A stretch of DNA of 64,000 bases from a candidate division WWE3 bacterium RIFOXYC1_FULL_40_10 (GTDB lineage Bacteria; Patescibacteriota; WWE3; UBA101185; UBA10185): contig MEWB01000001.1 of assembly GCA_001773215.1 (NCBI GenBank), positions 742,099-806,098 on the forward strand, in the 5' to 3' direction. How positions within the stretch are numbered: the first letter of the stretch is position 1; every line of letters begins with the position of its first letter. Shown here piece by piece: positions 30,533-62,630 of the stretch. Both the position numbers and the translations under genes were made by a program. The notes beneath the pieces are model-generated. The model saw nothing but the letters and a program-made list of their open reading frames with translations, made no database searches and had not been told where the DNA came from.

Positions 30533-31131
30533 TTTCCATTCTTTCTAAACGTACCCTCCATCTCTAACTCGTAGCTCTTATTATCATTTCTTAGAGTTGC
30601 AGAGACTAGAGATAGCTGATCCACTTTTTGAGTATCAAGGTAATAATTAACGGCGTTTGCAAAATGGAGTGCAGTGGGACCAACAAATTTAATTGTAAAC
30701 CCGTCTTTAGTCAGCACCACTGACAAAACTACTATATCCAAATCAGTAATACCCATTGCAGTATCTATGCTGGAACTTATTTTCTCTTGAGATTGCAAAA
30801 TTCTTTTGTAAACGGTGATTTTATCCCCTATTACTCGTGCCTTCGCCTCGTATTGGGAATAGGGGGATAACTCTTGAAAATTCTCATTCATAGTTTTAAC
30901 TGAAAATTGCAGTCGGGAATCTACCGATTTCTCATACAAAAATAAAACAATGAACACAATAGCCATAACTCCGATAGCTATCCGATAAAAGGTTAACAAT
31001 TTTTCAAATTTGGGAGATGCAAAAGAAGAAGATGGGAAACTTAACAGATCTACACCTGGCACCACTTCTTCCCGCTGAGGAGATAGCCTATTTTTTAATA
31101 GGTTTAATAAGGGCAGAAATTTTTGAAGCAT
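30529..31131 (-). CDS. PilN-like type IV pilus assembly protein
   Basis: The N-terminal LNLLK resembles the PilN INLLP PilM-binding motif, followed by a TM and coiled-coil. Its start overlaps the rpsT 3' end. Confidence 0.45.
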   Translation of the reverse strand: MLQKFLPLLNLLKNRLSPQREEVVPGVDLLSFPSSSFASPKFEKLLTFYRIAIGVMAIVFIVLFLYEKSVDSRLQFSVKTMNENFQELSPYSQYEAKARVIGDKITVYKRILQSQEKISSSIDTAMGITDLDIVVLSVVLTKDGFTIKFVGPTALHFANAVNYYLDTQKVDQLSLVSATLRNDNKSYELEMEGTFRKNGK

Positions 31132-31369
31132 ACTTAGATTTTAGCCTATTTGCCCTATTAATATGAAGCACTTTCTCTTTAGATGCTTTATCTAACACTT
31201 TTTGCGCAACAACAAGCTTTTCGGTTAGTACTTTAATGTCTTCTTTATCTTTTAAACCCTGCTCAATATTTTTTAAGCTGTTTTTTATTCTCCTTTTCCA
31301 AAAAAGATTATGTGACTCCTTTTTTGCGGAGCTTCTTACTGCCTTTTTAGCTGATAAAGTATTTGCCAT
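31088..31369 (-). CDS. rpsT: 30S ribosomal protein S20
   Basis: MANTLSAKKAVRSSAKKESHN... matches the S20 N-terminus (MANxKSAKKR). 93 aa from the internal ATG; the track ORF extends upstream to 31417. Confidence 0.8.
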   Translation of the reverse strand: MANTLSAKKAVRSSAKKESHNLFWKRRIKNSLKNIEQGLKDKEDIKVLTEKLVVAQKVLDKASKEKVLHINRANRLKSKYASKISALIKPIKK

Positions 31370-31429
31370 AACGGGTCGTATCATAGCATACCAAAAGAAT
31401 AATGGGAAGAGAACCATAAATCCTGTACA

Positions 31430-37900: not shown

Positions 37901-37985
37901 TGAGGTACAGGGAACTGCCACAGCGACACCAGTAAAAAAGACCTTCTGGCAGAATATTTTAGGCTGGTTTGGCATCAAATATTAG
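34920..37985 (+). CDS. Large secreted surface protein with FG-GAP/integrin-alpha-like beta-propeller repeats and Ig-like domains
   Basis: GTG start, then a signal peptide. At least six DxDGDGxxD / GDxNxDGxxD calcium-binding FG-GAP repeats. Duplicated ~150-aa C-terminal modules (WTACTANDSTFDE / WIACTAYDSTFDE). Confidence 0.7.
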   Translation: MKNLFLTFLISIFSVAFFFTCTNITWAAPSLTSVGTISSGRTYFGFPTEIGDVNGDGYDDIVASDYNFSTAGMVNIYYGGTSFNNTLDASILGEESSNYFGFAESAAISLKDITNDGKSELLAGAWGYSSSNGRFYAFNNKDFVPGLSANTAELQATGNGTDRYYFGMGIGAGDFDGDGDNDIVIAAPTSVANQGAIQLFQNNNGVIDFDNRWGFTTVTNVRLMGYMNGVKIGDFNGDGRDDILTGDNYSYAGYIGKDLDIFLSVGDGSLTEVNFSTAAAGDYFGRAGTFHTGDINNDGKDDFCAGAYLYNSYAGRITCWYGRETFLSSYAYNTADVFINGGAANDSFGRAVDIADVNNDGYPDLMVGAYQAYAPAGSTHGKAYVYKNTGTGSGIDTSSPWISEIKTSGNAYFGSDINSGDIDADGWKDIAVLQGNGASVLNMYEMSHGSPSITFISTTTGGNLVGTSSDSDASYTLAGVGWSTSNTLPGTWTACTANDSTFDESTEAFTCDLSAYANGTYSLYFRSYDQNSVYMSTQLYASDSITVDKNPPNVLSLSPASAGIISTATPTLTGTLNKTGDCRASTTDESYDNMSDNVDCTGDGTVSASCAIPALGLDGSKTLYISCQDDSGYKDSTATNEEIIYTLDTLAPSIIMDSLTTPTSDATTSFTGTANDVTSPIQTVEYQVDTTSGSWIACTAYDSTFDEASETVTCTISPALSDGIHTIYFRAQDDAGHYVVVSNYGEEQITIDTIAPTPDSTRQKIGTKDEPKQLKGIGTEVIKKNSKKFKLYFDLKDATSSIEHYIISQNRDFEDSSWKAFDGDASVEFKADGKKQLYIRFKDAAGNISDTFEQTIQIDTQPPELQVTKIGTFEPDFTEHKNYFYSENLVRIAGTVEKDADLRVYVNNGLIEDIQDINELGNWEVTHDFNFGKSEVRFEAEDDFKNITKLEFNLTIDSIAQTTQQALGTFTQMVEPSLQPEELEPAGDTVEIKTEVQGTATATPVKKTFWQNILGWFGIKY

Positions 37986-42583: not shown

Positions 42584-43276
42584 TCACCTCCTAGTCTTTT
42601 TAAGACAAAAAATTGTTATTTCAAACAAAAGTACTAATGGAACTACCATTGCTACCATAGATAATACGTCTGTAGGCGGTAGCAACGCTACAAAAATTAT
42701 AGCACAGGCAAAGATATAGGGACGTTTAGAAATTAACATTTCAAGTTCTAAGATCCCAACCTTCACTAATACTGCCAACACAATCGGAAATTCAAACACC
42801 AGTCCAAGCATTGTGGCGGTGATTAGCACTTGAGAGATAAATACCTGGATATCCCAATAATTACCAATTCTTGTACCATAAAGCAAATCAGCAAATGTAA
42901 AAATAACGAATTTCATTAACAAGACGCCAAATATAAACCCAACGAAAAACAATACCAAAGCTAAGAAAGAATAAGTCGCAACTAGGCGCCGTTCACCTTT
43001 ATTTAAAGCAGGAAGGACAAATCTAGCCAATAAAAAAACCACTACCGGCAGGGTAATTACTATAGCCACAAGAAAACCAGTATTAGCGGAGAGATTAAAT
43101 ACCTGTAGAGGGGATGTAACAGTCATCTGGATATTGGTAAGATTAAAAATTTTTAGAAAAATTACGAGTAAATTCTTCGAAAATCCAAACCCCAAACAAA
43201 AGGCAACTATAAAAAAAGCTCCTACAACCAAAGCAATTTTTCTTAAGCTGGCCAAATAGTGATCGTACCTAGTCAC
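42584..43276 (-). CDS. tatC: Sec-independent translocase TatC
   Basis: 6-TM TatC pattern, 230 aa. Confidence 0.8.
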   Translation of the reverse strand: MTRYDHYLASLRKIALVVGAFFIVAFCLGFGFSKNLLVIFLKIFNLTNIQMTVTSPLQVFNLSANTGFLVAIVITLPVVVFLLARFVLPALNKGERRLVATYSFLALVLFFVGFIFGVLLMKFVIFTFADLLYGTRIGNYWDIQVFISQVLITATMLGLVFEFPIVLAVLVKVGILELEMLISKRPYIFACAIIFVALLPPTDVLSMVAMVVPLVLLFEITIFCLKKTRR

Positions 43277-43277
43277 A

Positions 43278-45680
43278 TTAACCCCCGCTAGCTCTTAAAT
43301 ATCTGGACAAAGTAATGTGCTGCCGCGACGCTGTGGACCCCCCAAGCGAAATGGGAGGGCTCATTGGTAAGGCATCCGTCCAATAATCCAACGAGCCTGA
43401 GTCCAAAGTGTGACTTGTAGGATAGGTGACCACGATATCATCAAAGTAAACGTAAGCGTTGGTTGTGATAGCTCCTGTCCGGGCACTTAGAGAAACCGTT
43501 ATCTGTCCGTAAGCGGTTATCGGAGTGAATGGAAGTTGTAAAAGTTGCCAGTCGGTTGTTTCTGTGGCCTGAACATAGGTTATCGTTCCATCATCGTAAT
43601 CTATAGTTAATCTTGGTAATTGATGGGTTCCTGAATAATAATTCGCTGAGGCTATCTTGCACCATATCCCTACTATCATGGTTTTGTTTTGGATATTTCC
43701 CGTAGGGATAGTAAACTGCCAATCATTTAACGAATTAGTGCTGTTTTCGGGCTTGTAACGTATAGCCAACCCATCCGCCGTATGACAAGTGGTATCAGTA
43801 AGCCCTGCACCTGTGGACTGGGTTACTCCATACTTAAAATAGCAGGTGTGGTTGTTAGCCACCTGGTCGTTGGTATCAATTTTTATATAAGAACCAAGAG
43901 TCATGCCAGAATAATTATTCACATCATTTGTAGAACCCAAAATACAGTTCTTAACGATAACTCTCTGGTAGGTAGACGAGGTTATATCTATATTGTTCGT
44001 TCCTGCAGACTTGTTTCCCCATTCGCAATCCTCAAATACCGTGTCAATAGTATTTACCGTAAGTGATACATTGCTCGTTGCTTTATCAGAATGACAACGA
44101 GTAAACGTGTTTAAAATAAATGTACCGTAGATTCTGTAACCACCCGCTCCCCCACATATTCTCATATCTGTAAAAGTACAGTTTACGCAGTTGCTCAGAA
44201 GAAGCGGGTCGTATGTACCCGAACCAGAACCACCGCTCTGAATGTTACTTATTGTAGAATTAAGGGCATAACTGATGTAGAACGTGGCATTAGCACCAAG
44301 GTTCCCCGCATAAATATGATCAATGGTTCCATTAAATATCGTCAAACCTTTAGAGTTTCCCCAGTCCCCTTGTCTCATAAATATATACTGGTAGTGGGTT
44401 CCTGTCATGGCTGTTGTAACAGCGGTTACTGCTGCATAGCTAACCAAATTGGGTCCCAACGTAGTAGTTCTTTGCATAATCAAAGTGTCTATTTCGTAAG
44501 GGGTAAAGCGGGTTGTGTCTATTGCCCCATATGAGGTACACTGCAACATCACACAACCAGAATCAACAAATACACCACTAACTTTCCACGTGTGAAATTG
44601 ACCGCCCGCCATTGAACCAGTGCCATTAAGTTTTATTCCACACCTGCTTGCTCTGGTAAAATTCCAAACAACAAAATCTGCATAGTGCAGATAAGTAAGA
44701 TTAGCAACGGTTGTTATAGATGTGCCCGATATAGAAGAAATTGTTGGTGACTCATAGCCGACATTTAAGCTGTTAGCACCCAGAACATCAATCACATCTG
44801 TGGCTACCCATGATGCCGACATATCATCGGTAGTAGTGATAATCTTTTGGGAGGCTGCAGCGTTAGAAGCCAGGGTTGTATAATAACTTGTCGGCTTCTC
44901 CCCATACAATGAGATCTCATTTTGTATTGGAACTGCATAATTAACTCCAAAATAATGATTAGCGATATTTATAATAGCTTGCTGAGCATAAGGTATTCTG
45001 TTTGTACTATCACCAACCTCAAGCCGTAAATCTCTTGACCAATAAAGACTGGTGACCGTAAGAGTGTAACTTGCTGCTGGTGTACTATCCCACACAAGAT
45101 GCGTATTAACTCCTGTAGCGACTGTCGTCGCGGTGATGCTCTGGTCAATGGTAAAAACTTGCCCGTCACGAAAAACAATATTGTCTCCCGACGAATAAGA
45201 GGTCGTCGCTGTGAGAACAACGCCATAACTATACCCCGAACGAAGGTAAACTTGGCCCGAAGCACTTGCTTGTATCCACCATCTCCATGTAGAAGCACCG
45301 GTTGTAACAGCAGCAGCGGTGCCAAGCTCAAAATAATGACCCATTAAGTATCCAGCCACATAACCACTATGAGTACTTAAAATATCAGATTGTGTTGCTG
45401 TTACTGTAGCCCCTGCTACATCTCCCCATGCACCACCAGAGTATTGTTGAAGTTTCACAGTTACCGTAGTACCTGCCGCAAAAGCTCCGTTTGTGGATAA
45501 TGCTATAAACACACCTTCGCAATCTCCTGCTTCATTCGGGGTAAATTCTTGAGTCCTTACTGTGCCTATATCAGTTCCCGCAGAAGCCTCAGACATATTC
45601 GGTGCCCACGAAAAAGCCACCACTTTTTGTGGTGTTAAGGTCGAAAAAGCTCCTCCCGCTTTATAGAAAATTGTTGCCAT
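43278..45680 (-). CDS. Large Thr/Ser/Gly-rich right-handed beta-helix (pectate-lyase-fold-like) protein without a signal peptide
   Basis: 800 aa. Parallel beta-helix-type repeats (NCTFTDMRICGG..., IVKNCILGSTND...). No N-terminal hydrophobic segment. Located 1 nt upstream of tatC. Confidence 0.5.
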   Translation of the reverse strand: MATIFYKAGGAFSTLTPQKVVAFSWAPNMSEASAGTDIGTVRTQEFTPNEAGDCEGVFIALSTNGAFAAGTTVTVKLQQYSGGAWGDVAGATVTATQSDILSTHSGYVAGYLMGHYFELGTAAAVTTGASTWRWWIQASASGQVYLRSGYSYGVVLTATTSYSSGDNIVFRDGQVFTIDQSITATTVATGVNTHLVWDSTPAASYTLTVTSLYWSRDLRLEVGDSTNRIPYAQQAIINIANHYFGVNYAVPIQNEISLYGEKPTSYYTTLASNAAASQKIITTTDDMSASWVATDVIDVLGANSLNVGYESPTISSISGTSITTVANLTYLHYADFVVWNFTRASRCGIKLNGTGSMAGGQFHTWKVSGVFVDSGCVMLQCTSYGAIDTTRFTPYEIDTLIMQRTTTLGPNLVSYAAVTAVTTAMTGTHYQYIFMRQGDWGNSKGLTIFNGTIDHIYAGNLGANATFYISYALNSTISNIQSGGSGSGTYDPLLLSNCVNCTFTDMRICGGAGGYRIYGTFILNTFTRCHSDKATSNVSLTVNTIDTVFEDCEWGNKSAGTNNIDITSSTYQRVIVKNCILGSTNDVNNYSGMTLGSYIKIDTNDQVANNHTCYFKYGVTQSTGAGLTDTTCHTADGLAIRYKPENSTNSLNDWQFTIPTGNIQNKTMIVGIWCKIASANYYSGTHQLPRLTIDYDDGTITYVQATETTDWQLLQLPFTPITAYGQITVSLSARTGAITTNAYVYFDDIVVTYPTSHTLDSGSLDYWTDALPMSPPISLGGSTASRQHITLSRYLRASGG

Positions 45681-52145: not shown

Positions 52146-54035
52146 ATGGCGAAAATATTAGGAATAGATTTAGGAACTACTAACTCGTGCATGGCCGTTA
52201 TGGAAAGCGGTCAGCCGAAAGTAATTCCAAATGCGGAGGGTGGCAACACAACTCCATCAATAGTAGTTGCCGACCAAAACATAGTTGGTGTGCCTGCAAA
52301 ACGCCAGCAAATAGTAAACCCAAAAAATACTGTTTACAGTATAAAAAGATTGATGGGCATGAAATACTCGGATCCCGAGGTTCAGGAAATGAAAAAAAAT
52401 TACCCCTACGCTATCGTCGAAGGTCCAAATGGATTAGCCTGCGTAGAGGTCGAAGGAAAAACTTACACACCTCAAGAAGTTTCTGCCAAAATTTTGGCTA
52501 AAATGAAAGCAGATGCTGAAAAGTTTTTGGGACAAACGATTACCCAAGCGGTTATTACAGTTCCGGCATACTTTAACGACGCCCAAAGAAACGCTACCAA
52601 AGAGGCAGGGCAGATCGCGGGATTTACAGTTGAGAGAATTATTAACGAGCCTACCGCGGCATCACTTGCCTACGGTCTCGACAAGAAAACCAATCAAAAA
52701 ATAGTGGTCTACGACTTGGGAGGCGGAACATTTGATGTTTCCGTTTTAGAAGTTGGGGACGGAGTATTTGAAGTTAAATCAACAAGTGGTGATACACACT
52801 TGGGTGGCGATGACTTTGACAAAAAAGTAATGGACTGGCTTTTGGAGGAATTTAAAAAAGAATCAGGAATAGATTTGGTAGGTGACAGACAGGCTTTACA
52901 AAGATTAAAAGATGCCGCCGAAAAAGCCAAGATTGAATTGTCGTCAACAATGGAAACCGAAATCAGTATTCCGTTTATCACGGCTGATCAAACGGGACCT
53001 AAGCATTTATCTTTGAAATTAACCAGATCGAAACTGGAGCAGCTTGTCGATGACTTACTTCAAAGAACTATAAAACCTATGGAAAATGCGTTAAAAGACG
53101 CCGGTTTAGACAAAAGCGCAATAGATGAAGTGGTAATGGTAGGCGGCATGACCAGGATGCCTAAGGTAAACGAAATTGTTAAAAACTTCTACGGCAAAGA
53201 ACCTCATAAAGGTGTAAATCCCGACGAAGTTGTAGCAGTAGGAGCCGCTATCCAAGGTGGAGTCCTAGGAGGAGATGTTAAAGATGTGTTGCTTTTGGAC
53301 GTAACTCCACTAACATTGGGCATCGAAACCCTCGGGGGAGTCTCTACTCCATTGATTAAGCGAAATACCACAATTCCTACATCTGCGTCACAGGTGTTTT
53401 CAACAGCGGCCGATAACCAGACAAGCGTAGAAATAAATGTATTACAAGGAGAACGCGAAATGGCGGCTGATAATAAATCGTTGGGCAGGTTTATGCTCGA
53501 CGGAATTCCCCCTGCTCCAAGAGGCATGCCTCAGGTAGAAGTTACCTTTGACATAGACGCAAACGGAATAATAAACGTTTCAGCAAAGGACAAAGCTACA
53601 AATAAGGTTCAAAAAATAACTATTCAAGGTGGCACAGGGCTTGGAAAAGATGAAATAGAAAAAATGGTTAAAGATGCCGAGGCTCACGCCAGCGAAGATA
53701 AAAAGCGTAAAGAACAGGTTGACGCAAGGAATGTTGCCGATACTTTGTGCTACACAGCTGAGAAGGCATTGAAAGATGCCGGAGATAAAGTTCCTGCTGA
53801 TGTAAAAAGCTCTATTGAATCTAAGGTAAAAGATATAAGGGATGTGTTACAAACTGCGGATGTGGAAACATTGAAGTCTAAAACGGAAGCTTTAAGCTCG
53901 GAAATCCAGAAAATTGGGGAAGCAATGTATAAGCAGGGGCAGGAGCAGAATCCAAATCCAAACCCAGGAGAAGGCCCAAAGGCAGAAGATGATAACAAAA
54001 AGGACGAGCCTGTTGAGGGTGAGGTCGTGGAATAA
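52146..54035 (+). CDS. dnaK: Chaperone DnaK (Hsp70)
   Basis: [16 protein letters not shown], and the full Hsp70 NBD/SBD; 629 aa. Confidence 0.95.
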
Positions 54036-54047
54036 CACTACTATAGG

Positions 54048-54076
54048 TTGACAAATCCTTTGTTTTTTGCTATAAT
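54048..54076 (+). promoter_or_regulatory. Perfect-consensus sigma70 promoter TTGACA-N17-TATAAT immediately after dnaK
   Basis: Exact consensus hexamers with a 17-nt spacer. Drives the GC-shifted Cys-rich ORF. Confidence 0.6.
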
Positions 54077-54147
54077 ACCGGCATATATGGCTCCAGCTAT
54101 CCAATGCATTGCAAAGGAAGAAAATTCACGGAGCAAAAGGAGTGTTT

Positions 54148-54654
54148 GTGAAAAACGAAGGGTTTTTGAAAAATGGTAAGGTTCCAAAGGAAGTAAAGAC
54201 CCTGCTCAAAGAGGCCTATTCCACGGGTGGCTTTCTCACCCTGATAGAGAAAACAATAGAAATGCTTGGCAGATATAGTATGCCATGCTGGCGTCTTATG
54301 AATCAGTCCATCAAGACACTGCCAGTCCCAGATATGGAAACCATCAACAAATTCCTTGCCCTTGAGCTCCCTCCATCTATCAAAGAGGTAGCACGGGACT
54401 TCTGGCCAAGATACGAAGAAAAGGTATTTTGGAGCGGGCTAATCGAGGATCAGGAATATGCATCTATCGAAGAAGCCCGGGTTGCAGAACCGGAAACACC
54501 TTGGTTTCACAAGACCACGCTGTGGTTTGTGAGAGAAGGCCCCTGGCTAAACGTCTCTTGCAAGGGGATTTGTGTGGACACCAATTGCCGGTGCAATGGT
54601 TCAACCTGGTATTATGATGATTCGCATAGATACCGGGAAGAATACGATCTTTAA
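54148..54654 (+). CDS. Hypothetical Cys-rich protein (168-181 aa), compositionally atypical orphan
   Basis: AAGGAG-5 nt-GTG start at 54148; the track alternative is a TTG at 54109. C-terminal CKGICVDTNCRCNG. GC and codon choice (CTG, CCC, GGC) look higher than the neighbours by eye. Confidence 0.5.
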   Translation: MKNEGFLKNGKVPKEVKTLLKEAYSTGGFLTLIEKTIEMLGRYSMPCWRLMNQSIKTLPVPDMETINKFLALELPPSIKEVARDFWPRYEEKVFWSGLIEDQEYASIEEARVAEPETPWFHKTTLWFVREGPWLNVSCKGICVDTNCRCNGSTWYYDDSHRYREEYDL

Positions 54655-54773
54655 TTTCAAATAAGAAGAGCAGAAATCTACTATTTGTAGATACCGTAAG
54701 CAAAGACCTAGCTTACAGGTACCCCGCCTGCCGCCTTATTCAAAGGTAAATAGGGGATGATGCAATTATTAAA

Positions 54774-54805
54774 CCCGCAGAACTTATTATCTGCGGGTTT
54801 TTTTT
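54774..54805 (+). terminator. Strong rho-independent terminator
   Basis: CCCGCAGA-8 nt loop-TCTGCGGG followed by TTTTTTTTATT. Confidence 0.75.
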
Positions 54806-54816
54806 ATTCCCCACGC

Positions 54817-54845
54817 TTGCCCCCATAACCCAAAAGAGATAATAT
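54817..54845 (+). promoter_or_regulatory. Sigma70-like promoter TTGCCC-N17-TAATAT, 9 nt upstream of the 54855 ATG
   Basis: Hexamers and spacing fit. No SD, and the distance implies a leaderless or ~3-nt-leader transcript. Confidence 0.4.
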
Positions 54846-54854
54846 TTAACCATT

Positions 54855-55115
54855 ATGGATATATTACAAATTGCCCTCATAGTAGTATTGATTCTTTTAG
54901 CAGTTAACTTAGTAATAGTTGCAATATACGTTACCCTGACGATGCGAGAATTTAGAGCGGCTATTAAAAAAGCCAGTAACGTACTTGATAATGTGGAAAC
55001 CGTGTCGGAACCCCTTTCTGCGGTTGCCGGAATAATTGCCGGTGTATCTCAAAGTGTTAAAACAATTAAAGAAATTGGTAATTTAATTGATTCTAAAAAG
55101 AGAAAGGAGGAATAA
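54855..55115 (+). CDS. YtxG-like (DUF948) small membrane-anchored protein
   Basis: N-terminal TM plus a helical C-terminus. Paired with the YtxH-like gene downstream, as in the Bacillus ytxGH arrangement. Confidence 0.45.
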   Translation: MDILQIALIVVLILLAVNLVIVAIYVTLTMREFRAAIKKASNVLDNVETVSEPLSAVAGIIAGVSQSVKTIKEIGNLIDSKKRKEE

Positions 55116-55118
55116 AAC

Positions 55119-55445
55119 ATGACGGAAAATATTGAGAAGAAAAAAAGCGGATTTGTTGGAGGAGCTTTTTTGGGAGCCTTATTTGGATCGATACTTGGAA
55201 TTCTGTTCGCACCCGCTTCAGGTAAGGAAACACGCGGTAAGATTAAGGAAGGAGCTAAGGATGTAGCTGAAAAAGGAAAAGACGTTTACGAAGCAGCTAA
55301 AGATAAGATAGAACCTATTGTTAAAGAAGCTTCAGAAAAAGCTAAAGCTGCAGCCGAGGCCGGAAAAGACTTCGTTACAGATGCAAAAGAGGAAATCGAA
55401 GAAAAAATCGAAGAAGTGAAAGAAAAGCTTTCCTCTAGGGAATAA
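55119..55445 (+). CDS. YtxH-like protein
   Basis: GxxxGxxxGxLFAPASGKETR N-terminal motif, then a Lys/Glu/Ala-rich helical region. GGAGG RBS. Confidence 0.6.
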   Translation: MTENIEKKKSGFVGGAFLGALFGSILGILFAPASGKETRGKIKEGAKDVAEKGKDVYEAAKDKIEPIVKEASEKAKAAAEAGKDFVTDAKEEIEEKIEEVKEKLSSRE

Positions 55446-55453
55446 CTACAAAT

Positions 55454-55858
55454 ATGGATCAAAACCTGCCTATTAATCCTGACATAAGTAATCCGGTGTT
55501 GCCTTTGGGCCACCGGGTTATCCAGCCTGCTAAGGTTGAAGCCGCCGGATATATGCCTGTTAGTGTAGAGAGCGTAAGTTCTATATCGGCAGAACAAAAC
55601 AGTGAAGCGCAAAGAACTCCCGAGGCATTCACCCTACCTAATCAAGCACTGGCTCCATCAGTTGACCAACCGGCACCTATACCTCCCCAGCAAACACAGC
55701 AGCAGCCTGCCGTTTCGAACGTAGTAAATACTACTGATCAAGTTTTGCCTGAGCATAAGCTAATAACAAGCGATACCCTAACAACCCTAGCAGACCAAGA
55801 GGAACAAGAGTTTATTGATAAAGTAGAGGAGGCTCATGGAGTTGGAAGCCACAATTAA
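55454..55858 (+). CDS. Low-complexity Pro/Gln-rich hypothetical protein (134 aa)
   Basis: PAPIPPQQTQQQPAVS segment. The 3' end overlaps the start of the coupling-ATPase gene by 23 nt. Confidence 0.4.
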   Translation: MDQNLPINPDISNPVLPLGHRVIQPAKVEAAGYMPVSVESVSSISAEQNSEAQRTPEAFTLPNQALAPSVDQPAPIPPQQTQQQPAVSNVVNTTDQVLPEHKLITSDTLTTLADQEEQEFIDKVEEAHGVGSHN

Positions 55859-58238
55859 TTCCTGGATAAGCTACTTTTTTATGGCATTAATTGCCGGGAT
55901 AGTATTTTTTTCGATCATACTGTTTTTTGCCTGGAGAAAAAAGAAGAAAAACGAAACCGCATACCAATACAACCTTACCTTTTTGCACATTAAAGTACCC
56001 AGTACAAACGAGTATGAAATAAAAATAGCCGAAACCTTTTTTTCCAATTTGATCGGTTTGAAAAAAAGTTTTTGGCAGTCGTTATTTTCTGATCAATACA
56101 GAATTTCCTTTGAAATAGTATCCAAAAGTGACGGTATCGGATTTTACGTGGTAGTACCCGATGAAATTGCCGCTCTTGTAGAAAAACAAATCAACGCAGC
56201 TTACCCTGAGGCCGAGATAGATATCGTTAATCCCCAGGAAATTTGGGACCGGGGCGAATATACAAAAGTAGCGGAATTAAAGCTGAAAGGAGCAAATTAT
56301 TATCCAATAAAAGATCATGAAGACATCAAAAATGATCCCCTAAAGGGTATTACTTCGGCAATGAGTAAGATGGGGAATGACGAAGTGTTAGCCCTGCAAT
56401 ATATAATCGCCCCAGCCAGTGACGCGTGGAGACTAGCCGGACGCAGTTTTGTTACCAGGATTAAAAACTCAGCGGCCAACCCTGAAAAAAAGACTAACGT
56501 TGACACGTCCTTTTTAGAAAAAATTGAAAAAAAGATCGCAAATCCCGGATTTTATACAAAAATAAGGATAGTATCCATCGCCAAGGATCCGTTTGCAGCG
56601 GAAACCTTGATTCAAAACGCTATTAATTCATTCGAGCAGTTTTCCGATGTTAACTACAATAAATTCGTTAGGAGAACCCCTTTTTCGAATAAAAGATGGA
56701 TTAACAATTTCGTGTATAGAAAAATGGATCCGATAGAAATTGCCATCCCTGTGGTTGGCACAATTTTGTTCACAAATGTATCAGTTCTAAACACTGTAGA
56801 GCTTGCCACAATATTCCACATGCCTAATAAAGACACCGGCACACCCAAAATTTTGTGGCTGACTGCCAGAAAAGCCTCTGCCCCGGCAAATGTTCCCTCG
56901 GAAGGATTGTATCTTGGCAAAAATATATTTAGAGGCGTGGAAAAACCTATTTTCATGAATGAAAAGGACCGTTCGCGGCATTTTTACATAATTGGACAAA
57001 CCGGTACCGGTAAATCCGTGCTAATGAAGTGGTTGGCACTGCAGGATATAAAAAATGGGGAGGGTTTGGCGATAATCGATCCCCATGGTACAGACATTTC
57101 AGACCTGTTACCTCAAATACCACGCGAAAGAATTGATGACGTTATCTATTTCGACGCATCCGACACAGAACGCCCTCTGGGAATTAACTTACTGGAAGCT
57201 CATTCCGAAGAAGAGAAGCACATGGTCATTAATTCATTTATTGCTTTATTGTACAAACTGTATGATCCCAACCACCAAGGCATTATGGGACCACAGTTAG
57301 AGCGTTCAATTCGTAACTGCATGCTCACTGCAATGGCAGACCCTACAAGTACAATGATCGACGTGATGCGCTTGCTAATTGACGGCAATTATTACAAAAA
57401 ATTCTTGCCGATGCTTAACGATCCTTTGGTTACAAGATATTGGACGGATGAAATGGCCAATACCAGCGACTATCACAAAAGTGAAAAAATGGGCTACATG
57501 GTATCTAAGTTTGATCGCTTTGTAACCGACAGAACCATGAGAAATATAATAGGTCAACCAACCTCAGCCTTTAATTTTCCTGATATTATGGCTCAAAAGA
57601 AAATCCTTCTTATCGATCTTGCTAAAGGTAAGCTTGGAGAAGAAAATTCCACGTTCTTAGGCCTTCTGCTTGTACCACGCATTTTGGCAGCTGCCCTGCA
57701 ACGCCACAAATTAATAGGAACGGATTTTCCTAATTTCTATTTATACGTAGACGAATTCCAAAACTTTGCTACTCCCGACTTTGCGACAATTCTATCCGAG
57801 GCCAGAAAATATAAATTGAATCTTATTGTGGGACACCAGTTTATAGATCAATTAGAAGACGATATTAAAGAGGCAATATTTGGAAACGTGGGGACGATGG
57901 CAACTTTTAGAGTTGGCTCTGATGACGCGGAATTCCTAAAAACTCAGTTTGAGCCAACCTTTACCGACAGAGACTTAATAAATCTCCCGATATTTAACAG
58001 CTACATGAAACTGCTCATTGACGGCCACCCTTCTCCACCATTCTCATTAGTTGTAGATACTGAAAAAACATTTAGCCAACCAAGTGATCCCGATGTAGAA
58101 AAAACCATAATCCAAAATTCCCGAATGAAATACGGCAAAAGCGCGGAGGAAGTTGAAAAGTTCATTACCAAAGCCGCGGGAATAGAGGAACCGAAAGTAG
58201 AGGAGTTCCCTGCTTTACGACCGAAGCTGCCATTCTAA
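55836..58238 (+). CDS. TraD/TraG/VirD4-like (type IV coupling protein-like) membrane ATPase
   Basis: N-terminal TM. Walker A IIGQTGTGKS then AIIDPHG. Walker B LYVDEFQNF then KYKLNLIVGHQFIDQLEDDIKEAIFGNVGTMATFRVGSDD, paralleling the TraD C-terminal NBD (LFIDEL...GLRVVAGLQSTSQLDDVYG). Confidence 0.65.
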   Translation: MELEATINSWISYFFMALIAGIVFFSIILFFAWRKKKKNETAYQYNLTFLHIKVPSTNEYEIKIAETFFSNLIGLKKSFWQSLFSDQYRISFEIVSKSDGIGFYVVVPDEIAALVEKQINAAYPEAEIDIVNPQEIWDRGEYTKVAELKLKGANYYPIKDHEDIKNDPLKGITSAMSKMGNDEVLALQYIIAPASDAWRLAGRSFVTRIKNSAANPEKKTNVDTSFLEKIEKKIANPGFYTKIRIVSIAKDPFAAETLIQNAINSFEQFSDVNYNKFVRRTPFSNKRWINNFVYRKMDPIEIAIPVVGTILFTNVSVLNTVELATIFHMPNKDTGTPKILWLTARKASAPANVPSEGLYLGKNIFRGVEKPIFMNEKDRSRHFYIIGQTGTGKSVLMKWLALQDIKNGEGLAIIDPHGTDISDLLPQIPRERIDDVIYFDASDTERPLGINLLEAHSEEEKHMVINSFIALLYKLYDPNHQGIMGPQLERSIRNCMLTAMADPTSTMIDVMRLLIDGNYYKKFLPMLNDPLVTRYWTDEMANTSDYHKSEKMGYMVSKFDRFVTDRTMRNIIGQPTSAFNFPDIMAQKKILLIDLAKGKLGEENSTFLGLLLVPRILAAALQRHKLIGTDFPNFYLYVDEFQNFATPDFATILSEARKYKLNLIVGHQFIDQLEDDIKEAIFGNVGTMATFRVGSDDAEFLKTQFEPTFTDRDLINLPIFNSYMKLLIDGHPSPPFSLVVDTEKTFSQPSDPDVEKTIIQNSRMKYGKSAEEVEKFITKAAGIEEPKVEEFPALRPKLPF

Positions 58239-58275
58239 CGACGAATGTATCTTTTGTTGTATAATCTCATTATTA

Positions 58276-59481
58276 ATGTTTAAGCTGCCATTTTTAAATA
58301 AAACTCAAAAATCAGATAGATTTTTAACTATTCACATTAGCACTAGTGAAGTGAAATGCTTAGCCATTTACTGTGAAAACGGGATCTTCAAGATAATTGG
58401 ACATGGCATTGCCGAGCTCGAACCGGGAAATGTAAGAGGCGGGATAATAATAGATAAGGAGAAAGTGGCAACGGCCCTCCAGGACACAATAGAAAAAGCT
58501 ACGGAGCATTCCGAAGAAACCATTTCGGATGTAATTTTTGGTGTGGGAAGCAACCTTTGTACAAGTTTAATGACTACCATACGATCAAAAAGAGCCGCCA
58601 GAACTCCTATCGAAGAAAATGAATTAGAAGACTTATATAGCAAAGTAAACGAAACTGCATTCATTCAAGCCCAAAACGAATTTCTTGAAATTACAGGCGA
58701 TTCTGAGACTGAGCTGGTTTCGATAACCTCTTCAAACGTTTATCTAAAATCCGAAGGCCAAAAAGTGGATTCGTTGATTGGCAAGCCTGCCGGGGTAATT
58801 GAAATAGCTGTGTTCAACTCATACGCTCCAAATTATCACGTTAAAGCTCTTCAACAACTTGCTAAAAAGTGTGAACTTGATATCTTGGCCATCGGATCTG
58901 AACTCTACTCCCTTGTTCAAAATATTATTCAAACTAACAGGGAAACTCTGGATTTCGTAATATTAGACATTGGGACTGACTATACAAATGCTGCTGTTGT
59001 GTTTTCGGGTGGAGTGGTTTCGAACAAGAGTTTGAATATTGGATACTCACACTTTGTTGATGCATTAAATGACCGTATGGGAATAACTGTGGAAGAGTCC
59101 AGAAAGATACTGAGAACTTATTTGGCCGGCGGACTATCCCAATCGGAAGGGTTTGTGGTTTTGGAAGCTCTACGAGACGTGATAGAAGTGTGGCTATTGG
59201 GATTAGAAATGCTATTTAGAGAGTTTTACGGAGTAAAAACTTTCCCATCAAAAATATTTATAACAGGTGCGGGCGCGGATATAAAAGAAATATTGGATTC
59301 TATAAAAACAGAACCATGGACTAAGACTGTACCCTTTAAATCGCCTCCGGTATTTTCTAAACTAAGTTTTTCCGATTTACGGGATATAGTGGATAGCACC
59401 AGTAGGGTAAATAAGTCAGAGTGGGTTTCTGCAGCAAGCCTTGCAGTTATCTATAATGAGATAGGAAATCAAAATGACTAA
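58276..59481 (+). CDS. FtsA/PilM-like actin-fold ATPase
   Basis: Phosphate-1 (LTIHISTSEVKCLAI), connect and phosphate-2 (ILDIGTDYTNAAVVFSGGV) motifs, plus ITGAGA, at FtsA-like spacing. No ftsZ follows. Confidence 0.55.
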   Translation: MFKLPFLNKTQKSDRFLTIHISTSEVKCLAIYCENGIFKIIGHGIAELEPGNVRGGIIIDKEKVATALQDTIEKATEHSEETISDVIFGVGSNLCTSLMTTIRSKRAARTPIEENELEDLYSKVNETAFIQAQNEFLEITGDSETELVSITSSNVYLKSEGQKVDSLIGKPAGVIEIAVFNSYAPNYHVKALQQLAKKCELDILAIGSELYSLVQNIIQTNRETLDFVILDIGTDYTNAAVVFSGGVVSNKSLNIGYSHFVDALNDRMGITVEESRKILRTYLAGGLSQSEGFVVLEALRDVIEVWLLGLEMLFREFYGVKTFPSKIFITGAGADIKEILDSIKTEPWTKTVPFKSPPVFSKLSFSDLRDIVDSTSRVNKSEWVSAASLAVIYNEIGNQND

Positions 59482-60997
59482 ACTAGAACTGGAAATTTAC
59501 GAAGACGTTTTCGCTGTCACAAGCAAAATAAAGGAACTTAACGATTCTGGTATTGAGCTTATTATTCCGCAGGGATCAGTGTTATTCGAAAACATCTTGA
59601 ACCTAAAATTGTTAAAAGCACAAGCCGACAAGTTCGAAAAAACAGTTCAATTTACCACAAAAGATACGATAGGCAACACACTAATAGAAATGCTTGAGGA
59701 TAAAAGAGACACCTTTACCTCGACGGAACCGGAGACCGAAAGCCCTAAGGAAATAGTTGCCGTTCCAAAATATAAATTTAACTTTCCGAAAATAAATATG
59801 AAAGCGTTTAAACTACCCAAGTCCAACAAAGCAGTTTTGTTAATTCCTTTAATTTTAGTATTATTCGGAGCCCTTTACTGGTATGTAGGGAAAAAACAAA
59901 CAAAAGCTTTTGCCCAGGTTGTAGTAAAAACGGAACCTTTGGTTAGAAGTGTCACAGTAAGAATTGATGTTAATCAGGTAACTAATCCTGAAACGAAAAT
60001 TCTAAAGGGCGCAACCCTTGCTACTACATATGAAGGAACTCAAAAAATACCAACTACCGGAGAAAAAATTGAGGGTGAAAAAGCCGAAGGTGAAATCATT
60101 ATTTATAATATGACCGACACCGAGGTTAAGTTATCAAAAGGAACTGAATTAACTTACGACAAAGAAAGCTTAAAATTTGAATTAAAGGATGCGGTGACCG
60201 TTGCCGGAAAGTCGTTAACTTCCACCGACGAAACTGAAGGAACAGGCACTTACGTTTTCGGAGAAGCAAAGGCTAGTATAAGAGCAAAAGAAATCGGTGC
60301 CGAGTATAACCTGGATAAAGGGAGAGACTTGCTTGTTAAGAACTATTCCATATCTGAGATAAAAGTTAAAACCAACCAACAACTCTCAGGTGGAAAAAGC
60401 GAAAAAATAAGCGTGGTCACACAGGAAGATAGAACTGCCCTCTCAACAAAGCTTTTAGAGGAAAACAAACAGTTAGCCGGGGATTTGCTTAAAAAACAGC
60501 TGAAATCCGGAGAAAAGCTGGTGGCAGGATCGGAAAGCATAGCCATAGTTAAAGAATCATTCGATTTTAAGGTTGACGATAAAGCAAAGGAATTAACTCT
60601 GGTACAATCGGTTGAAATAAAAGGGTTGGTTTATAAAGTAAAGGAACTCGAAGAATTACTGGACAAACTTGCAGACAATCTAATCCCAGATGGTTACAAA
60701 GCAGCTAACCAGGCAAAGGAAATAAAAGCAGAGGTTCTGGGTAACTCGGATGGAAGTGTTGTAACACCTCTTATAGCCGATATTCAAGCGACCCTAAAAA
60801 CGTATATAATCCCCGATTACGACGAAGCAAAACTGAAGCAACAGCTCCTTAATAAAAACCCCGCTGAGTCCCAAAAAATTCTTGGGGGCTTGCGTGATAT
60901 AAAAACCTACGAATTCAAAATAACCCCGGGCATTCCATTCTTCCAGCGTGTCCCTACGGATCCAAATTTAATTACTATCAAAGTAGTAACCGAGTAA
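59474..60997 (+). CDS. Bitopic membrane protein (cytoplasmic ~110 aa, one TM, ~370-aa extracytoplasmic Lys/Glu/Thr-rich domain)
   Basis: Overlaps the upstream stop by 8 nt. Single TM KAVLLIPLILVLFGALYWYV. No known motif. Confidence 0.45.
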   Translation: MTKLELEIYEDVFAVTSKIKELNDSGIELIIPQGSVLFENILNLKLLKAQADKFEKTVQFTTKDTIGNTLIEMLEDKRDTFTSTEPETESPKEIVAVPKYKFNFPKINMKAFKLPKSNKAVLLIPLILVLFGALYWYVGKKQTKAFAQVVVKTEPLVRSVTVRIDVNQVTNPETKILKGATLATTYEGTQKIPTTGEKIEGEKAEGEIIIYNMTDTEVKLSKGTELTYDKESLKFELKDAVTVAGKSLTSTDETEGTGTYVFGEAKASIRAKEIGAEYNLDKGRDLLVKNYSISEIKVKTNQQLSGGKSEKISVVTQEDRTALSTKLLEENKQLAGDLLKKQLKSGEKLVAGSESIAIVKESFDFKVDDKAKELTLVQSVEIKGLVYKVKELEELLDKLADNLIPDGYKAANQAKEIKAEVLGNSDGSVVTPLIADIQATLKTYIIPDYDEAKLKQQLLNKNPAESQKILGGLRDIKTYEFKITPGIPFFQRVPTDPNLITIKVVTE

Positions 60998-61006
60998 TAC
61001 AGCTCA

Positions 61007-61420
61007 ATGGCAGATACCAAGACGTACATAGGGATAGATTATGGTGAAACCAACATAGGGGTAGCCCTGGGAAAGAATGGGTTAGTTAATCCTATAAGTG
61101 TGCTTTCCGGAAAAAACCCCCAGGTAGCTATTAACGAGCTTAACAAACTCGCTCTAAACAATAAGGTAGAATGTTTCGTAGTAGGAATTCCCCTAACAGC
61201 CGAGGGAAAAGAAACAAAAAAATCTTTAAAAATTAGACAATTTTCTAAATTACTTCGAGTATACTCAAAGAAAAAAGTTGTCTTTCAGGATGAACATCAC
61301 AGCTCGATGGATGCACAAAAAGAGATCTTGTCCGAAGGATTATCAAAGAAGAACAGACATACCATCGACCATTACTCTGCCGCATTGATATTAAAACGAT
61401 TTTTCGACGAGAATCAGTAA
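61007..61420 (+). CDS. ruvX: Holliday-junction resolvase-like RuvX/YqgF
   Basis: YIGIDYGETNIGVALG, then ECFVVGIPL, then DE...S, then DHYSAALIL: the RNase H-like YqgF pattern. 137 aa. Confidence 0.8.
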   Translation: MADTKTYIGIDYGETNIGVALGKNGLVNPISVLSGKNPQVAINELNKLALNNKVECFVVGIPLTAEGKETKKSLKIRQFSKLLRVYSKKKVVFQDEHHSSMDAQKEILSEGLSKKNRHTIDHYSAALILKRFFDENQ

Positions 61421-61428
61421 GAGGCTAA

Positions 61429-61650
61429 TTACTCAGCCTTTTCCACCTTCATCTTAACTTCTTTTGACTCACAGTGCATACACTCAAAATTCTCGCCGGG
61501 GAGCAAACAGGACGGGCACATATATACACCATCCTTAAGGACAAGTTCCTCTTGTTTGCAGGTATTACACAGGAAAATAACATCATCCTGTGATATTTCT
61601 CCGCAATTTGGACAGATAAATTTAGTATTGGGTTTTATAAGTTCTTCCAT
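61429..61650 (-). CDS. Double zinc-ribbon small protein (73 aa)
   Basis: CPNC...CNTC and CPSC...CMHC cysteine pairs. Confidence 0.5.
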   Translation of the reverse strand: MEELIKPNTKFICPNCGEISQDDVIFLCNTCKQEELVLKDGVYMCPSCLLPGENFECMHCESKEVKMKVEKAE

Positions 61651-61703
61651 ATAGCTATTTTACATAAATTTAATACTTAGTAAAAGATGCTAAAATTTAC
61701 TTA

Positions 61704-61886
61704 ATGGAAATTTTACTTCTTCTTTTGAAAATATACCTGATAATAGGCTTTATCTATGCGTCTTATATCTTTGTGAATAGACTAAACAGGTGGTATATGT
61801 TTCTAATAGACATATTAGTAGGCCCCCTTTTACTTGTATATGTTGTATACGCCGGAGTGATTAAAAAGAGAAAGGTGCCATTTTAG
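61704..61886 (+). CDS. Small two-TM membrane protein (60 aa)
   Basis: Hydrophobic ORF directly upstream of the HAD hydrolase gene. Confidence 0.3.
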   Translation: MEILLLLLKIYLIIGFIYASYIFVNRLNRWYMFLIDILVGPLLLVYVVYAGVIKKRKVPF

Positions 61887-62630
61887 ATGTATAAAAGACT
61901 TATAGAAGGAAAAAAAGCAATCTTCTTCGACTTGGATGGGACTCTAGTGGACAATGCTCACCTATGGAAAGCAGCGTATAACCGAGTTTTAGAAACTGAA
62001 CGAGGCGCAGGCCTATTTACAGTTGATGACTACTTTGAAATGGGAAAGTCTACCAAAGATCAATGGCTTAACCTAAAAGCAGTGTTAAAAATTGAAACCC
62101 CACTTCAAGAATTAATGGATAAAACTTATACAAACTACCTGCAGCTTGTTAAAGATAGTGAACTTGCACCAAGGGAAGGTTTTACAAGGTTAATGTTCGA
62201 TCTTAAAGACAAAGGACTAAAGATGGCACTAGTTACAGGAACTAAAAGGGATATTACGTCTGAGGTATTAGCCAAGATTCAAGTTGAAAATATCTTTGAT
62301 TTAGTTGTGTGCGGAGACGAAGTTAGAAGAGAGAAACCTGATCCCATGATTTACAAGTATGCTGCCAAAAAGCTTGGTGTAAAGCCAAAGGAAGTGTTGG
62401 TGTTTGAAGATTCTATGATCGGGGCACGCTCCGCAGCAAAAGCCGGCATGGACTTGGCTATATTATGGGACGGAGAAATACCCAGGTATGATTATCCTGG
62501 TAATGTAGTACTATTTTTGGGAGACTTTGTGGCATTGGGAGGAAACCTGGACAAAGATCTTTACGAAACGCTCAAAGACGCTGCCCAATATTTTACCGAT
62601 TTAAGAAATAACCCTGGAAAAGTGGATTAA
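61887..62630 (+). CDS. HAD-superfamily hydrolase (beta-phosphoglucomutase/phosphatase-like)
   Basis: FFDLDGTLVDN motif I, VTGT motif II, K...FEDS motif III/IV. Confidence 0.75.
   Translation: MYKRLIEGKKAIFFDLDGTLVDNAHLWKAAYNRVLETERGAGLFTVDDYFEMGKSTKDQWLNLKAVLKIETPLQELMDKTYTNYLQLVKDSELAPREGFTRLMFDLKDKGLKMALVTGTKRDITSEVLAKIQVENIFDLVVCGDEVRREKPDPMIYKYAAKKLGVKPKEVLVFEDSMIGARSAAKAGMDLAILWDGEIPRYDYPGNVVLFLGDFVALGGNLDKDLYETLKDAAQYFTDLRNNPGKVD

Follow-up and report, generated by a model that had tools for sequence, protein, structure and literature searches.

Type IV coupling proteins (T4CPs), among them TrwB of R388, VirD4, TraD/TraG and DotL/IcmO, are membrane-anchored P-loop motors of the FtsK/HerA superfamily, typically with two transmembrane (TM) helices and the motor directly after them. 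Other described systems, PilM-PilN and GspL of type II secretion, join a cytoplasmic actin-fold protein to a bitopic partner encoded directly downstream and are arranged around a secretion ATPase; the PilM-binding motif of PilN is INLLP. FtsA is bound by the C-terminal peptide of FtsZ, and the C-terminal tip of SSB reads IPF-COOH. For the Patescibacteria (candidate phyla radiation, CPR), a recent survey counts 5,713 VirD4-like T4CP homologues in 2,918 genomes (Microb Genom 2025; PMC12102498). Here we analyse a 64-kb stretch of chromosomal DNA, hereafter the window, from candidate division WWE3 (Katanobacteria; Patescibacteria/CPR), in which the genes for an 800-aa T4CP-like ATPase, a 401-aa FtsA-like protein and a 507-aa bitopic membrane protein follow one another. 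A preliminary description of this DNA, whose open reading frames (ORFs) and quoted motifs are all present, had proposed that all three belong to a single, undescribed apparatus for translocating DNA or protein. Its identification of the parts has held up; the single apparatus fares less well, since the FtsA-like gene and its partner often occur without the ATPase and the ATPase is CPR-wide. The reading that we favour, at a probability of roughly 0.55, is that the region joins two separately conserved housekeeping modules, a T4CP-like ATPase module and an FtsA-like/partner module.

Distribution and linkage of the two modules

The FtsA-like gene was directly followed by a homologue of the 507-aa gene in 11 contexts (the window and loci L001, L002, L004, L082, L084, L085, L086/87, L089, L091 and L092), with E-values of 1e-38 to 1e-195. 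In the window the two genes overlap by 8 nt, and ruvX starts 9 nt beyond the second. At L086 (8155-10475) and L087 the 507-aa homologue is split into two genes, with ftsE-ftsX directly after; in L086 a 278-aa gene encodes the cytoplasmic domain and a long disordered tail (E 8e-11), and a 450-aa gene the TM helix and the ectodomain (E 1e-45). The conserved order, the translational coupling and this split-gene variant make a physical pairing of the two proteins very likely. The usual setting of the pair is alaS, FtsA-like gene, partner, ruvX and then mltG, as seen in L084, L085, L089 and L092; in these four loci alaS lies 5' of the pair, and mltG is within a few genes of it there and in L082. 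ruvX stands 3' of the 507-aa homologue in seven contexts (the window, L001, L082, L084, L085, L089 and L092), and at L083 a sortase gene lies between the two. In addition, ruvX of L092 is followed directly by mltG and then by mreB-mreC, and the pair lies directly 5' of ftsK-rodZ in L091 and of ftsE-ftsX in L086/87.

The ATPase gene has a different distribution. None was found in L083 or in L086-L092, which leaves the pair without an ATPase in L086/87, L089, L091 and L092, and neither an FtsA-like nor a 507-aa gene occurred within 8 kb of the ATPase at any of the 76 loci from non-WWE3 CPR classes. Proximity of the ATPase and FtsA-like genes is confined to WWE3 and its close relatives, and there too other genes may stand between them: alaS in L085, alaS and four other ORFs in L084, a 625-aa or 822-aa ORF in L082 and L001, and two genes in another locus. 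Because alaS or other large genes separate the modules in relatives, the direct adjacency in the window is probably derived, and loss or relocation of intervening genes in this lineage would be its simplest explanation. The three-gene linkage that a single apparatus would predict was found in WWE3 and close relatives, often with large genes in between, and was missing from the 76 loci of other classes.

These distributions bear directly on the proposal that the three proteins build one dedicated translocation machine, with the hexameric motor at its centre, an actin-like ring in the cytoplasm and a baseplate-J-like ring outside the cell. The genes are co-directional, with gaps of at most 37 nt and no internal terminator, and the modules lie 0-5 kb apart in all WWE3-type loci; the WWE3-specific K(L/I)PF tail of the ATPase also matches the conserved KLPF N-terminus of the FtsA-like protein, and the layout is reminiscent of a secretion ATPase surrounded by PilM-PilN or GspL. 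Nevertheless, we consider such a machine unlikely, given an ATPase that is CPR-wide and lacks the other two genes near it in the 76 non-WWE3 loci, a pair that dispenses with the ATPase in L086/87, L089, L091 and L092, the genes inserted between the modules in L085, L084, L082 and L001, and the absence of the tail from L084, which has both modules.

Among the ATPases, those of WWE3 alone carry a C-terminal extension of ~25 residues ending in K/R-(L/I/F)-P-F. This tail is present in the window, L001, L002, L004, L082 and L085 and absent from L084 and all other CPR classes, where the protein ends ~25 residues earlier. KLPF recurs at residues 3-6 of the FtsA-like protein, with L4 and P5 at least 90% conserved. 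At the nucleotide level, AAGCTGCCATT(C/T) occurs twice in the window, at 58224-58235 (ATPase C-terminus) and 58282-58293 (FtsA-like N-terminus), both copies encoding KLPF and agreeing at 11 of 12 nt. Gene conversion between the 3' end of the ATPase gene and the 5' end of the FtsA-like gene was considered for this identity and discarded; the codons differ at other loci, so the likeness reflects conservation at the protein level. The Leu4 codon of the FtsA-like gene is CTG in all six WWE3 loci examined. A wider docking network based on PF-COOH endings was also rejected, since the endings checked (DDLPF in the FtsK of L001 and KVPF in a 60-aa ORF of the window) are not conserved in relatives and the base rate of such endings is about 1 in 170 ORFs. 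The FtsK of L001 (3951-6245) has the C-terminus DDSDDLPF, similar to the tip of SSB, and the FtsK proteins of L082, L085 and L091 do not keep this ending.

By analogy, the KLPF tail of the ATPase recalls the FtsZ C-terminal peptide and the SSB tip. The KLPF echo is the sole sign that the modules may communicate physically in WWE3, and we take it as a lead, not as evidence for a complex. An arrangement in which the T4CP-like motor of WWE3 is recruited to the FtsA-like scaffold, its K(L/I)PF tail docking on the FtsA-like protein, whose own N-terminal MFKLPF would mimic that tail, seems to us decidedly doubtful. It would place a conjugation-type translocase of DNA or protein at a trans-envelope scaffold with a baseplate-J-like ring as its outer face; if it were true, the assembly would be a translocon of the division site or of host contact, for which no counterpart has been described. 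Equally doubtful is the broader idea that the DUF8128 ATPase and its small partner are a transport motor that defines the CPR and operates independently of a T4SS.

The coupling-type ATPase and its small partner

The ATPase has one hydrophobic segment (residues 10-33), Walker A and Walker B motifs (Table 1) about 240 aa apart, a spacing compatible with a T4CP-type all-alpha domain insertion, the motif IIDPHG at 413-418 and the further motifs KYKLNLIVGHQFIDQLEDD (658-676) and GNVGTMATFRVGSDD (683-697). Two Pfam families matched the window protein above their cutoffs, DUF87 (HerA; 31.5 bits) and TraG-D_C (27.4 bits, cutoff 22). TrwB_AAD_bind fell just below (19.4 bits, cutoff 20.5), T4SS-DNA_transf gave no match, and NCBIfam returned partial matches to TraD and VirD4-like models (SXT_TraD, 50 against a cutoff of 366). 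In a set of 31 diverse CPR members, TrwB_AAD_bind (best 1.2e-12) and TraG-D_C matched every protein and T4SS-DNA_transf matched 14 (best 1.3e-12). The top solved relatives in the Protein Data Bank (PDB) were TrwB and DotL, in keeping with the T4CP-like character assigned to the protein in the preliminary description. The term 'orphan' used there also fits, as no relaxase or type IV secretion system (T4SS) genes turned up among the window ORFs scanned. Assignment to FtsK/SpoIIIE was examined and dropped; FtsK_SpoIIIE did not match the window ATPase and matched only weakly in 11 of the 31 relatives, and in L001, L082 and L085 a complete ftsK stands as a gene of its own close to the ATPase gene.

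The N-terminal region belongs to DUF8128 (PF26449), which public precomputed annotation records on a 100%-identical protein (P0001) and on all 120 homologues listed. Profile searches of the PDB found no solved relative of this domain, and literature searches on DUF8128 returned nothing useful. The ATPase has 5,551 homologues. Species-representative genomes gave at least 600 matching stretches, full length and 35-65% identical, spanning Microgenomates, Dojkabacteria/WS6, Saccharibacteria and Parcubacteria, with full-length matches in every CPR class sampled, and identity across WWE3 is 60-69%. G387, G390, G392 and K393 of Walker A and D639, E640, F641, Q642 and N643 of Walker B are invariant in the 31 diverse members, as are many other residues, and this degree of sequence conservation across the CPR points to an active enzyme. 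The DUF8128 ATPases are very probably the same genes as the orphan T4CP homologues of the survey (PMC12102498). The family has already been noticed, then, as an uncharacterised orphan T4CP in the literature and as a domain of unknown function in Pfam.

We compared ATPase neighbourhoods by clustering the neighbours across 80 loci. The sole constant neighbour was a same-strand ORF at position -1, found in nearly all loci and in all CPR classes. Its product is disordered and variable in length (72-318 aa, mostly 100-190 aa); BLAST grouped 20 of these ORFs as one family, and each CPR class has its own conserved C-terminal helix. Within WWE3, conservation is restricted to an acidic C-terminal motif, D.LT.LAD.EE.EFI.KV..AH. 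In the window this is a Pro/Gln-rich ORF (P 11%, Q 10%) that overlaps the start of the ATPase gene by 23 nt and contains the GAGGAGG ribosome-binding site for the ATPase. Upstream in Microgenomates (for example L006 and L009) the order is nrdR, class II ribonucleotide reductase, cobalamin adenosyltransferase, small ORF and ATPase; on the 3' side come an opposite-strand XerC/D-type tyrosine recombinase (27 loci) and then DivIC/FtsB (19 loci). In Saccharibacteria the ATPase gene sits behind a ribosomal-protein/secY block, and in WWE3 the block 5' of it comprises ftsK, a RodZ-like gene, a small gene and ytxH. A 589-aa Levybacteria protein encoded 3' of the ATPase was considered as a homologue of the 507-aa protein on the strength of a weak profile match, and profile-profile comparison indicated no real homology.

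In the two-module reading, module 1 (55454-58238) would consist of the small disordered protein and the membrane-anchored ATPase with its intact catalytic motifs, as found in every CPR class sampled. The ATPase would act as a hexameric, membrane-bound translocase of DNA or protein without a neighbouring conjugative T4SS or relaxase, and the small protein may dock on it through its conserved C-terminal helix. Much of bacterial diversity belongs to the Patescibacteria, and the majority of the proteins conserved among them lack an assigned role; this ATPase is among the best conserved of them, at 35-69% identity across the superphylum, and its constant partner, domain layout and independence from T4SS genes narrow the hypotheses about it.

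The same data bear on another possibility, namely that the ATPase is the coupling protein of the monoderm-type T4SS of Patescibacteria (VirB4, VirB6) encoded elsewhere in the genome, with the FtsA-like pair unrelated to it; the ATPase would then deliver substrates to or from host cells. Its motor is of the T4CP type, and two reports describe T4CP genes as often lying away from virB4, and the Patescibacteria T4SS as widespread and as essential in S. epibionticum (PMC12102498; PMC11665869). We regard this role as rather unlikely. According to the survey, only 148 of the 5,713 homologues lie near virB4, the t4cp homologue of S. epibionticum, possibly a DUF8128 protein, is non-essential whereas the T4SS is essential, and exaptation of T4CP homologues 'cannot be ruled out' in its authors' words (PMC12102498). 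Furthermore, one TM helix followed by a DUF8128 domain of ~300 aa is unlike the canonical T4CP N-terminus, and the constant partner is a small disordered protein and no T4SS component.

The FtsA-like protein and its bitopic partner

The 401-aa protein carries the motifs LTIHISTSEV (17-26), ILDIGTDYTNAAVVFSGGV (229-247) and ITGAGA (329-334). Searches with the window protein gave NCBIfam matches to pilM (TIGR01175; 1.4e-11, 44 bits against a cutoff of 133) and to ftsA (TIGR01174; 8.4e-10, 38.3 bits against an equivalog cutoff of 175.85), and PilM_2 (PF11104) stayed below its cutoff (20.7 against 27). A profile of 33 homologues matched PilM (1.8e-14) and FtsA (1.4e-13) in the PDB about equally. 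The AlphaFold2 model (pLDDT 91) has an actin fold with a 1C (SHS2) subdomain. Its query-normalised Foldseek TM-scores were 0.66-0.70 for FtsA and 0.58-0.64 for PilM, and E-values to FtsA structures were about 1e-21 to 1e-25, the single best Foldseek E-value being that of a PilM chain. Fold and family searches thus agree with the earlier FtsA/PilM-like designation. An exhaustive profile search then widened the family to 386 clusters at E<=1e-30 along a smooth score gradient, more than a first word-indexed search had suggested. Distant members keep the DxGT, DxGGGTTD and GGGS motifs intact, and ftsA was the best NCBIfam match in 37 of 37 (best 4e-36; best for pilM 7e-13); the one wider-family member with its score shown lies below the ftsA cutoff. 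Since the wider members match ftsA best and pilM clearly less well, the family is, by sequence, related to FtsA and not to PilM.

The WWE3 members depart from this pattern in several places. At the phosphate-1 position the window protein has His in place of Asp, and only 16 of 33 WWE3 members have the Asp; the phosphate-2 DxG varies, and the adenosine GxG is kept. The chain stops directly after the last helix of the fold, without the C-terminal amphipathic helix of FtsA, and the N-terminus MxKLPF (MFKLPF in the window) is disordered and conserved. Relatives in L089 and L092 have C-terminal segments that look amphipathic, judged by eye. Because the WWE3 protein has lost conserved ATP-binding residues as well as the C-terminal helix, it probably reaches the membrane through the cytoplasmic domain of its partner. 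Elsewhere in the family, P0358 (808 aa, locus L090) is fused to an N-terminal TIR domain and P0373 (969 aa) to a caspase-like Peptidase_C14 domain, both scoring 225-235 bits to the WWE3 FtsA-like profile, and the gene for the TIR fusion adjoins HicB-like and HTH genes. The neighbours of the TIR fusion suggest that the family has been reused in a conflict or defence system.

The partner is, as first described, a bitopic protein with a single TM helix (~120-142), about 365 residues of it lying outside the cytoplasm. Its AlphaFold2 model (pLDDT 85) has a conserved cytoplasmic alpha/beta domain (1-76), a disordered linker, the TM helix and a beta-rich ectodomain (~143-507). Neither Pfam nor NCBIfam assigned the protein to a sequence family, and profile searches of the PDB found no solved relative; the sole Pfam match, to the GlxA barrel, was below cutoff (20 bits), and the beta-barrel of the ectodomain matched the GlxA barrel in Foldseek as well. 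Foldseek aligned the ectodomain with baseplate wedge/J proteins of diffocin, phi812, phiCD508, cyanophage A-1(L) and Mu over 330-450 columns, with E-values of 1e-5 to 1e-9 (lowest 2e-9) and global TM-scores of 0.15-0.19, and nearly all of 45 matches to viral models were named baseplate J or wedge. The global TM-scores being low, the modelled likeness to baseplate J appears to be local and domain-wise. Literature searches on baseplate J in Patescibacteria returned nothing useful. One homologue of the 507-aa protein, P0264 (746 aa, L083), was examined as a possible fusion to a reduced actin-like N-terminal domain and set aside (hhalign probability 0.3%, no support from Pfam).

Under the two-module reading, module 2 (58276-61420) would comprise the FtsA-family protein, its bitopic partner and RuvX, and would be the form that FtsA takes in the CPR, equipped with a transmembrane partner of its own; the FtsA-like and partner genes are a fixed pair in many CPR lineages. 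The module may serve as a cytoskeletal tether or trans-envelope scaffold for division or wall morphogenesis, in the manner of FtsA-FtsN or PilM-PilN. A part in division or wall morphogenesis is suggested by the affinity to ftsA, by the mltG, mreBC, ftsK-rodZ and ftsEX neighbours and by the separation of ftsA from ftsZ in TM7x, described below. The pair is a concrete candidate for tethering the division or morphogenesis machinery to the envelope in wall-bearing ultrasmall cells, and, if the models are right, a cellular membrane protein would have taken over a phage baseplate-J-like fold for its extracellular domain. Homologues of both modules exist in Saccharibacteria, where culture and genetic manipulation are possible, so that both are testable there.

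The window contains a second candidate partner for an actin-fold protein, 27 kb from the FtsA-like gene. The pilN/pilO-like pair noted in the preliminary description at 29957-31131 is well founded: 29957-30532 encodes PilO (28.6 bits, above cutoff), and 30529-31131, without a Pfam match, has a PilN-like layout and the N-terminus MLQKFLPLLNLLK (LPLLNLLK). The minus-strand order over 29957-31417 is rpsT, PilN-like gene, PilO and two small membrane ORFs, and a sortase gene (28459-29235) adjoins the pair on the other strand. The FtsA/PilM-like protein could accordingly be the missing PilM of a type IV pilus, partnering these genes. The PilN-like N-terminus resembles the INLLP motif, neither pilM nor any other pilus gene adjoins the pair (rpsT lies upstream), and the window protein itself matches PilM in sequence as well as it does FtsA. 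We found nothing that favours a link between the pair and the FtsA-like gene, and the idea strikes us as very improbable. The query-normalised TM-scores favour FtsA, ftsA is a far better match than pilM for the wider family, in every lineage the FtsA-like protein comes with a translationally coupled bitopic partner of its own, and none of the 11 FtsA-like neighbourhoods contains pilus genes. A canonical pilM may simply lie elsewhere, given that pilM usually co-localises with pilN/pilO in CPR genomes (PMC6744442).

Several points weigh against the two-module reading. We infer the translocase and divisome-scaffold roles from family membership and gene neighbourhood, and CPR genomes are small and gene-dense, which makes neighbourhood themes weak evidence. 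The window FtsA-like protein reaches 38 bits against an FtsA equivalog cutoff of 176 and could be a paralogue rather than the FtsA of the organism, and ftsZ adjoins the FtsA-like gene in none of the 11 contexts. Moreover, the two modules are only 0-5 kb apart in every locus of WWE3 and relatives examined, the ATPase tail is lineage-specific, and L084 has both modules with no tail on its ATPase. With regard to ftsZ, no FtsZ signature was found in the ~90 fetched loci and literature searches on WWE3 FtsZ gave nothing useful; in the Saccharibacterium TM7x the annotated ftsA (TM7x_02800) and ftsZ (TM7x_00785) are far apart, so adjacency to ftsZ may not be a valid criterion in the CPR. The simple alternative raised earlier, that the actin-like gene is ftsA in a divisome neighbourhood, is supported in part, by the ftsA-best matches (37 of 37) and by mltG, mreBC, ftsK-rodZ and ftsEX nearby, and not by ftsZ, which it never adjoins.

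Gene layout and genomic setting

The two modules are part of a cluster of seven co-directional genes (54855-61420; Table 1), with gaps no longer than stated above or with overlapping genes. A strong terminator-like hairpin (54771-54800) lies just 5' of the cluster, and none is internal to it. A gene of 88-95 aa occupies the position of the first gene, ahead of ytxH, in the WWE3 loci L001, L082 and L085, and the YtxH gene is kept 5' of the small-ORF/ATPase pair in L001, L082, L084 and L085. The fold search with the FtsA-like model also returned 9a51, an integrative model in which Mbl of B. subtilis, an MreB-like actin, is bound to YtxH. The gene 3' of the 507-aa gene is ruvX, and no ftsZ follows, in agreement with the preliminary description.

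Table 1. Features of the seven-gene cluster in the window.
Feature	Position	Strand	Remarks
86-aa small membrane protein	54855..55115	+	First gene of the cluster, partner of the YtxH gene; no Pfam match
YtxH-family protein, 108 aa	55119..55445	+	Pfam YtxH, 1.4e-19, 70.7 bits
Small Pro/Gln-rich disordered protein, 134 aa	55454..55858	+	No Pfam or NCBIfam match
ATPase, 800 aa, single-pass membrane protein	55836..58238	+	TM helix, DUF8128, VirD4/TrwB-type P-loop motor, tail ending in KLPF
Walker A, GQTGTGKS	56994..57017	+	ATPase residues 387-394
Walker B, LYVDEFQNF	57741..57767	+	ATPase residues 636-644
ATPase C-terminal K-L-P-F tail	58224..58235	+	P799 and F800 invariant in 32 WWE3 homologues
FtsA-family actin-fold protein, 401 aa	58276..59481	+	AlphaFold2, Foldseek, NCBIfam
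Bitopic membrane protein, 507 aa	59474..60997	+	AlphaFold2, Foldseek
RuvX (YqgF) nuclease	61007..61420	+	Last gene of the cluster; Pfam RuvX 9e-29; TIGR00250 69.8 bits, above cutoff

The 507-aa protein is 100% identical to one of candidate division WWE3 bacterium RIFOXYC1_FULL_40_10, encoded on a 904-kb contig, so the window is chromosomal. Pfam scans covered most window ORFs of 110 aa or longer, and a few ORFs had no match. All matches were to housekeeping genes, including hrcA-grpE-dnaK, groEL, murJ, lepA, glycolysis genes, UvrD-type helicases, tatC and a sortase; relaxase, VirB4/VirB6 and integrase were not found in these scans, as the preliminary description had also reported. An Rfam scan of 53900-62000 gave no credible RNA family. 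This setting hardly accommodates the idea that the cluster is what remains of an integrated element of conjugative or phage origin, to which we assign a negligible chance. The T4CP-like and baseplate-J-like families do have relatives in mobile elements. Yet the GC content of 54-62 kb (0.38-0.42) equals that of the rest of the window, the window scans revealed no integrase, relaxase, tRNA or tail genes, synteny with dnaK, ftsK, alaS and ruvX is conserved across many species, and the identity levels of the ATPase (60-69% in WWE3, 35-48% across the CPR) fit vertical inheritance.

Some other features of the window were recorded. Between dnaK and the cluster, a perfect sigma-70 consensus (54048-54076; TTGACA, 17 nt, TATAAT, with an upstream TG) is followed by a 181-aa ORF with a TTG start (54109-54654) and no Pfam match, and then by the hairpin already mentioned, which has an 11-bp stem; the segment 54048-54800 looks like a self-contained transcription unit, without an Rfam match. 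An 800-aa ORF at 43278-45680 on the minus strand, just upstream of tatC (42584-43276) on the same strand, has only a weak G8-domain match and is unrelated to the ATPase. The 1,021-aa protein encoded at 34920-37985 combines FG-GAP repeats with a bacterial Ig-like domain and probably serves as an adhesin on the cell surface.

Comparison with described systems

The ATPase resembles T4CPs in being a membrane-anchored P-loop motor of their superfamily, in its Walker A and B motifs and in the TraG-D_C region beyond Walker B. It differs from canonical members in having one predicted TM helix instead of two and an additional cytoplasmic domain, DUF8128, between this helix and the motor, and it scores far below the NCBIfam cutoffs for TraD and VirD4. 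Unlike T4CPs, it has no relaxase or T4SS genes nearby and shows a chromosomal, vertically inherited, housekeeping pattern, and its constant partner in the CPR is the small disordered protein encoded upstream. The survey of Patescibacteria T4CP homologues, in its accessible part, makes no mention of DUF8128, of the small ORF that constantly precedes the gene, of the WWE3-specific K(L/I)PF tail or of an FtsA-like module close by (PMC12102498).

With FtsA (S. aureus 3WT0/3WQT, T. maritima 4A2A, V. maritimus 7Q6I) the 401-aa protein shares the actin fold and the 1C (SHS2) subdomain, and division and morphogenesis genes are found near its gene too. In contrast to FtsA, identity is only 13-17%, WWE3 members lack the conserved phosphate-binding residues and the amphipathic helix and carry the MFKLPF peptide, and the genes always have a downstream bitopic partner and never lie beside ftsZ. 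The partner's ectodomain aligns locally with the baseplate J/gp47 wedge of phage Mu (gp47), phi812, diffocin and phiCD508, whereas the 507-aa protein itself is membrane-anchored and outward-facing, has a different domain arrangement and no Pfam Baseplate_J match, and occurs without tail or sheath genes around it.

The closest parallel in gene organisation is with PilM-PilN and GspL, and the match of the FtsA-like protein to PilM, in sequence and fold, is comparable to its match to FtsA. The 507-aa protein differs from PilN in having a folded cytoplasmic domain of 76 aa instead of a short INLLP peptide, with no pilus genes nearby, and from PilN/PilO in its baseplate-J-like ectodomain, which does not have their ferredoxin-like fold. 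The FtsA-like/baseplate-J-like pair appears to be undescribed in the searchable literature, and it is a variant of a known pattern, an actin-fold scaffold coupled to a bitopic partner.

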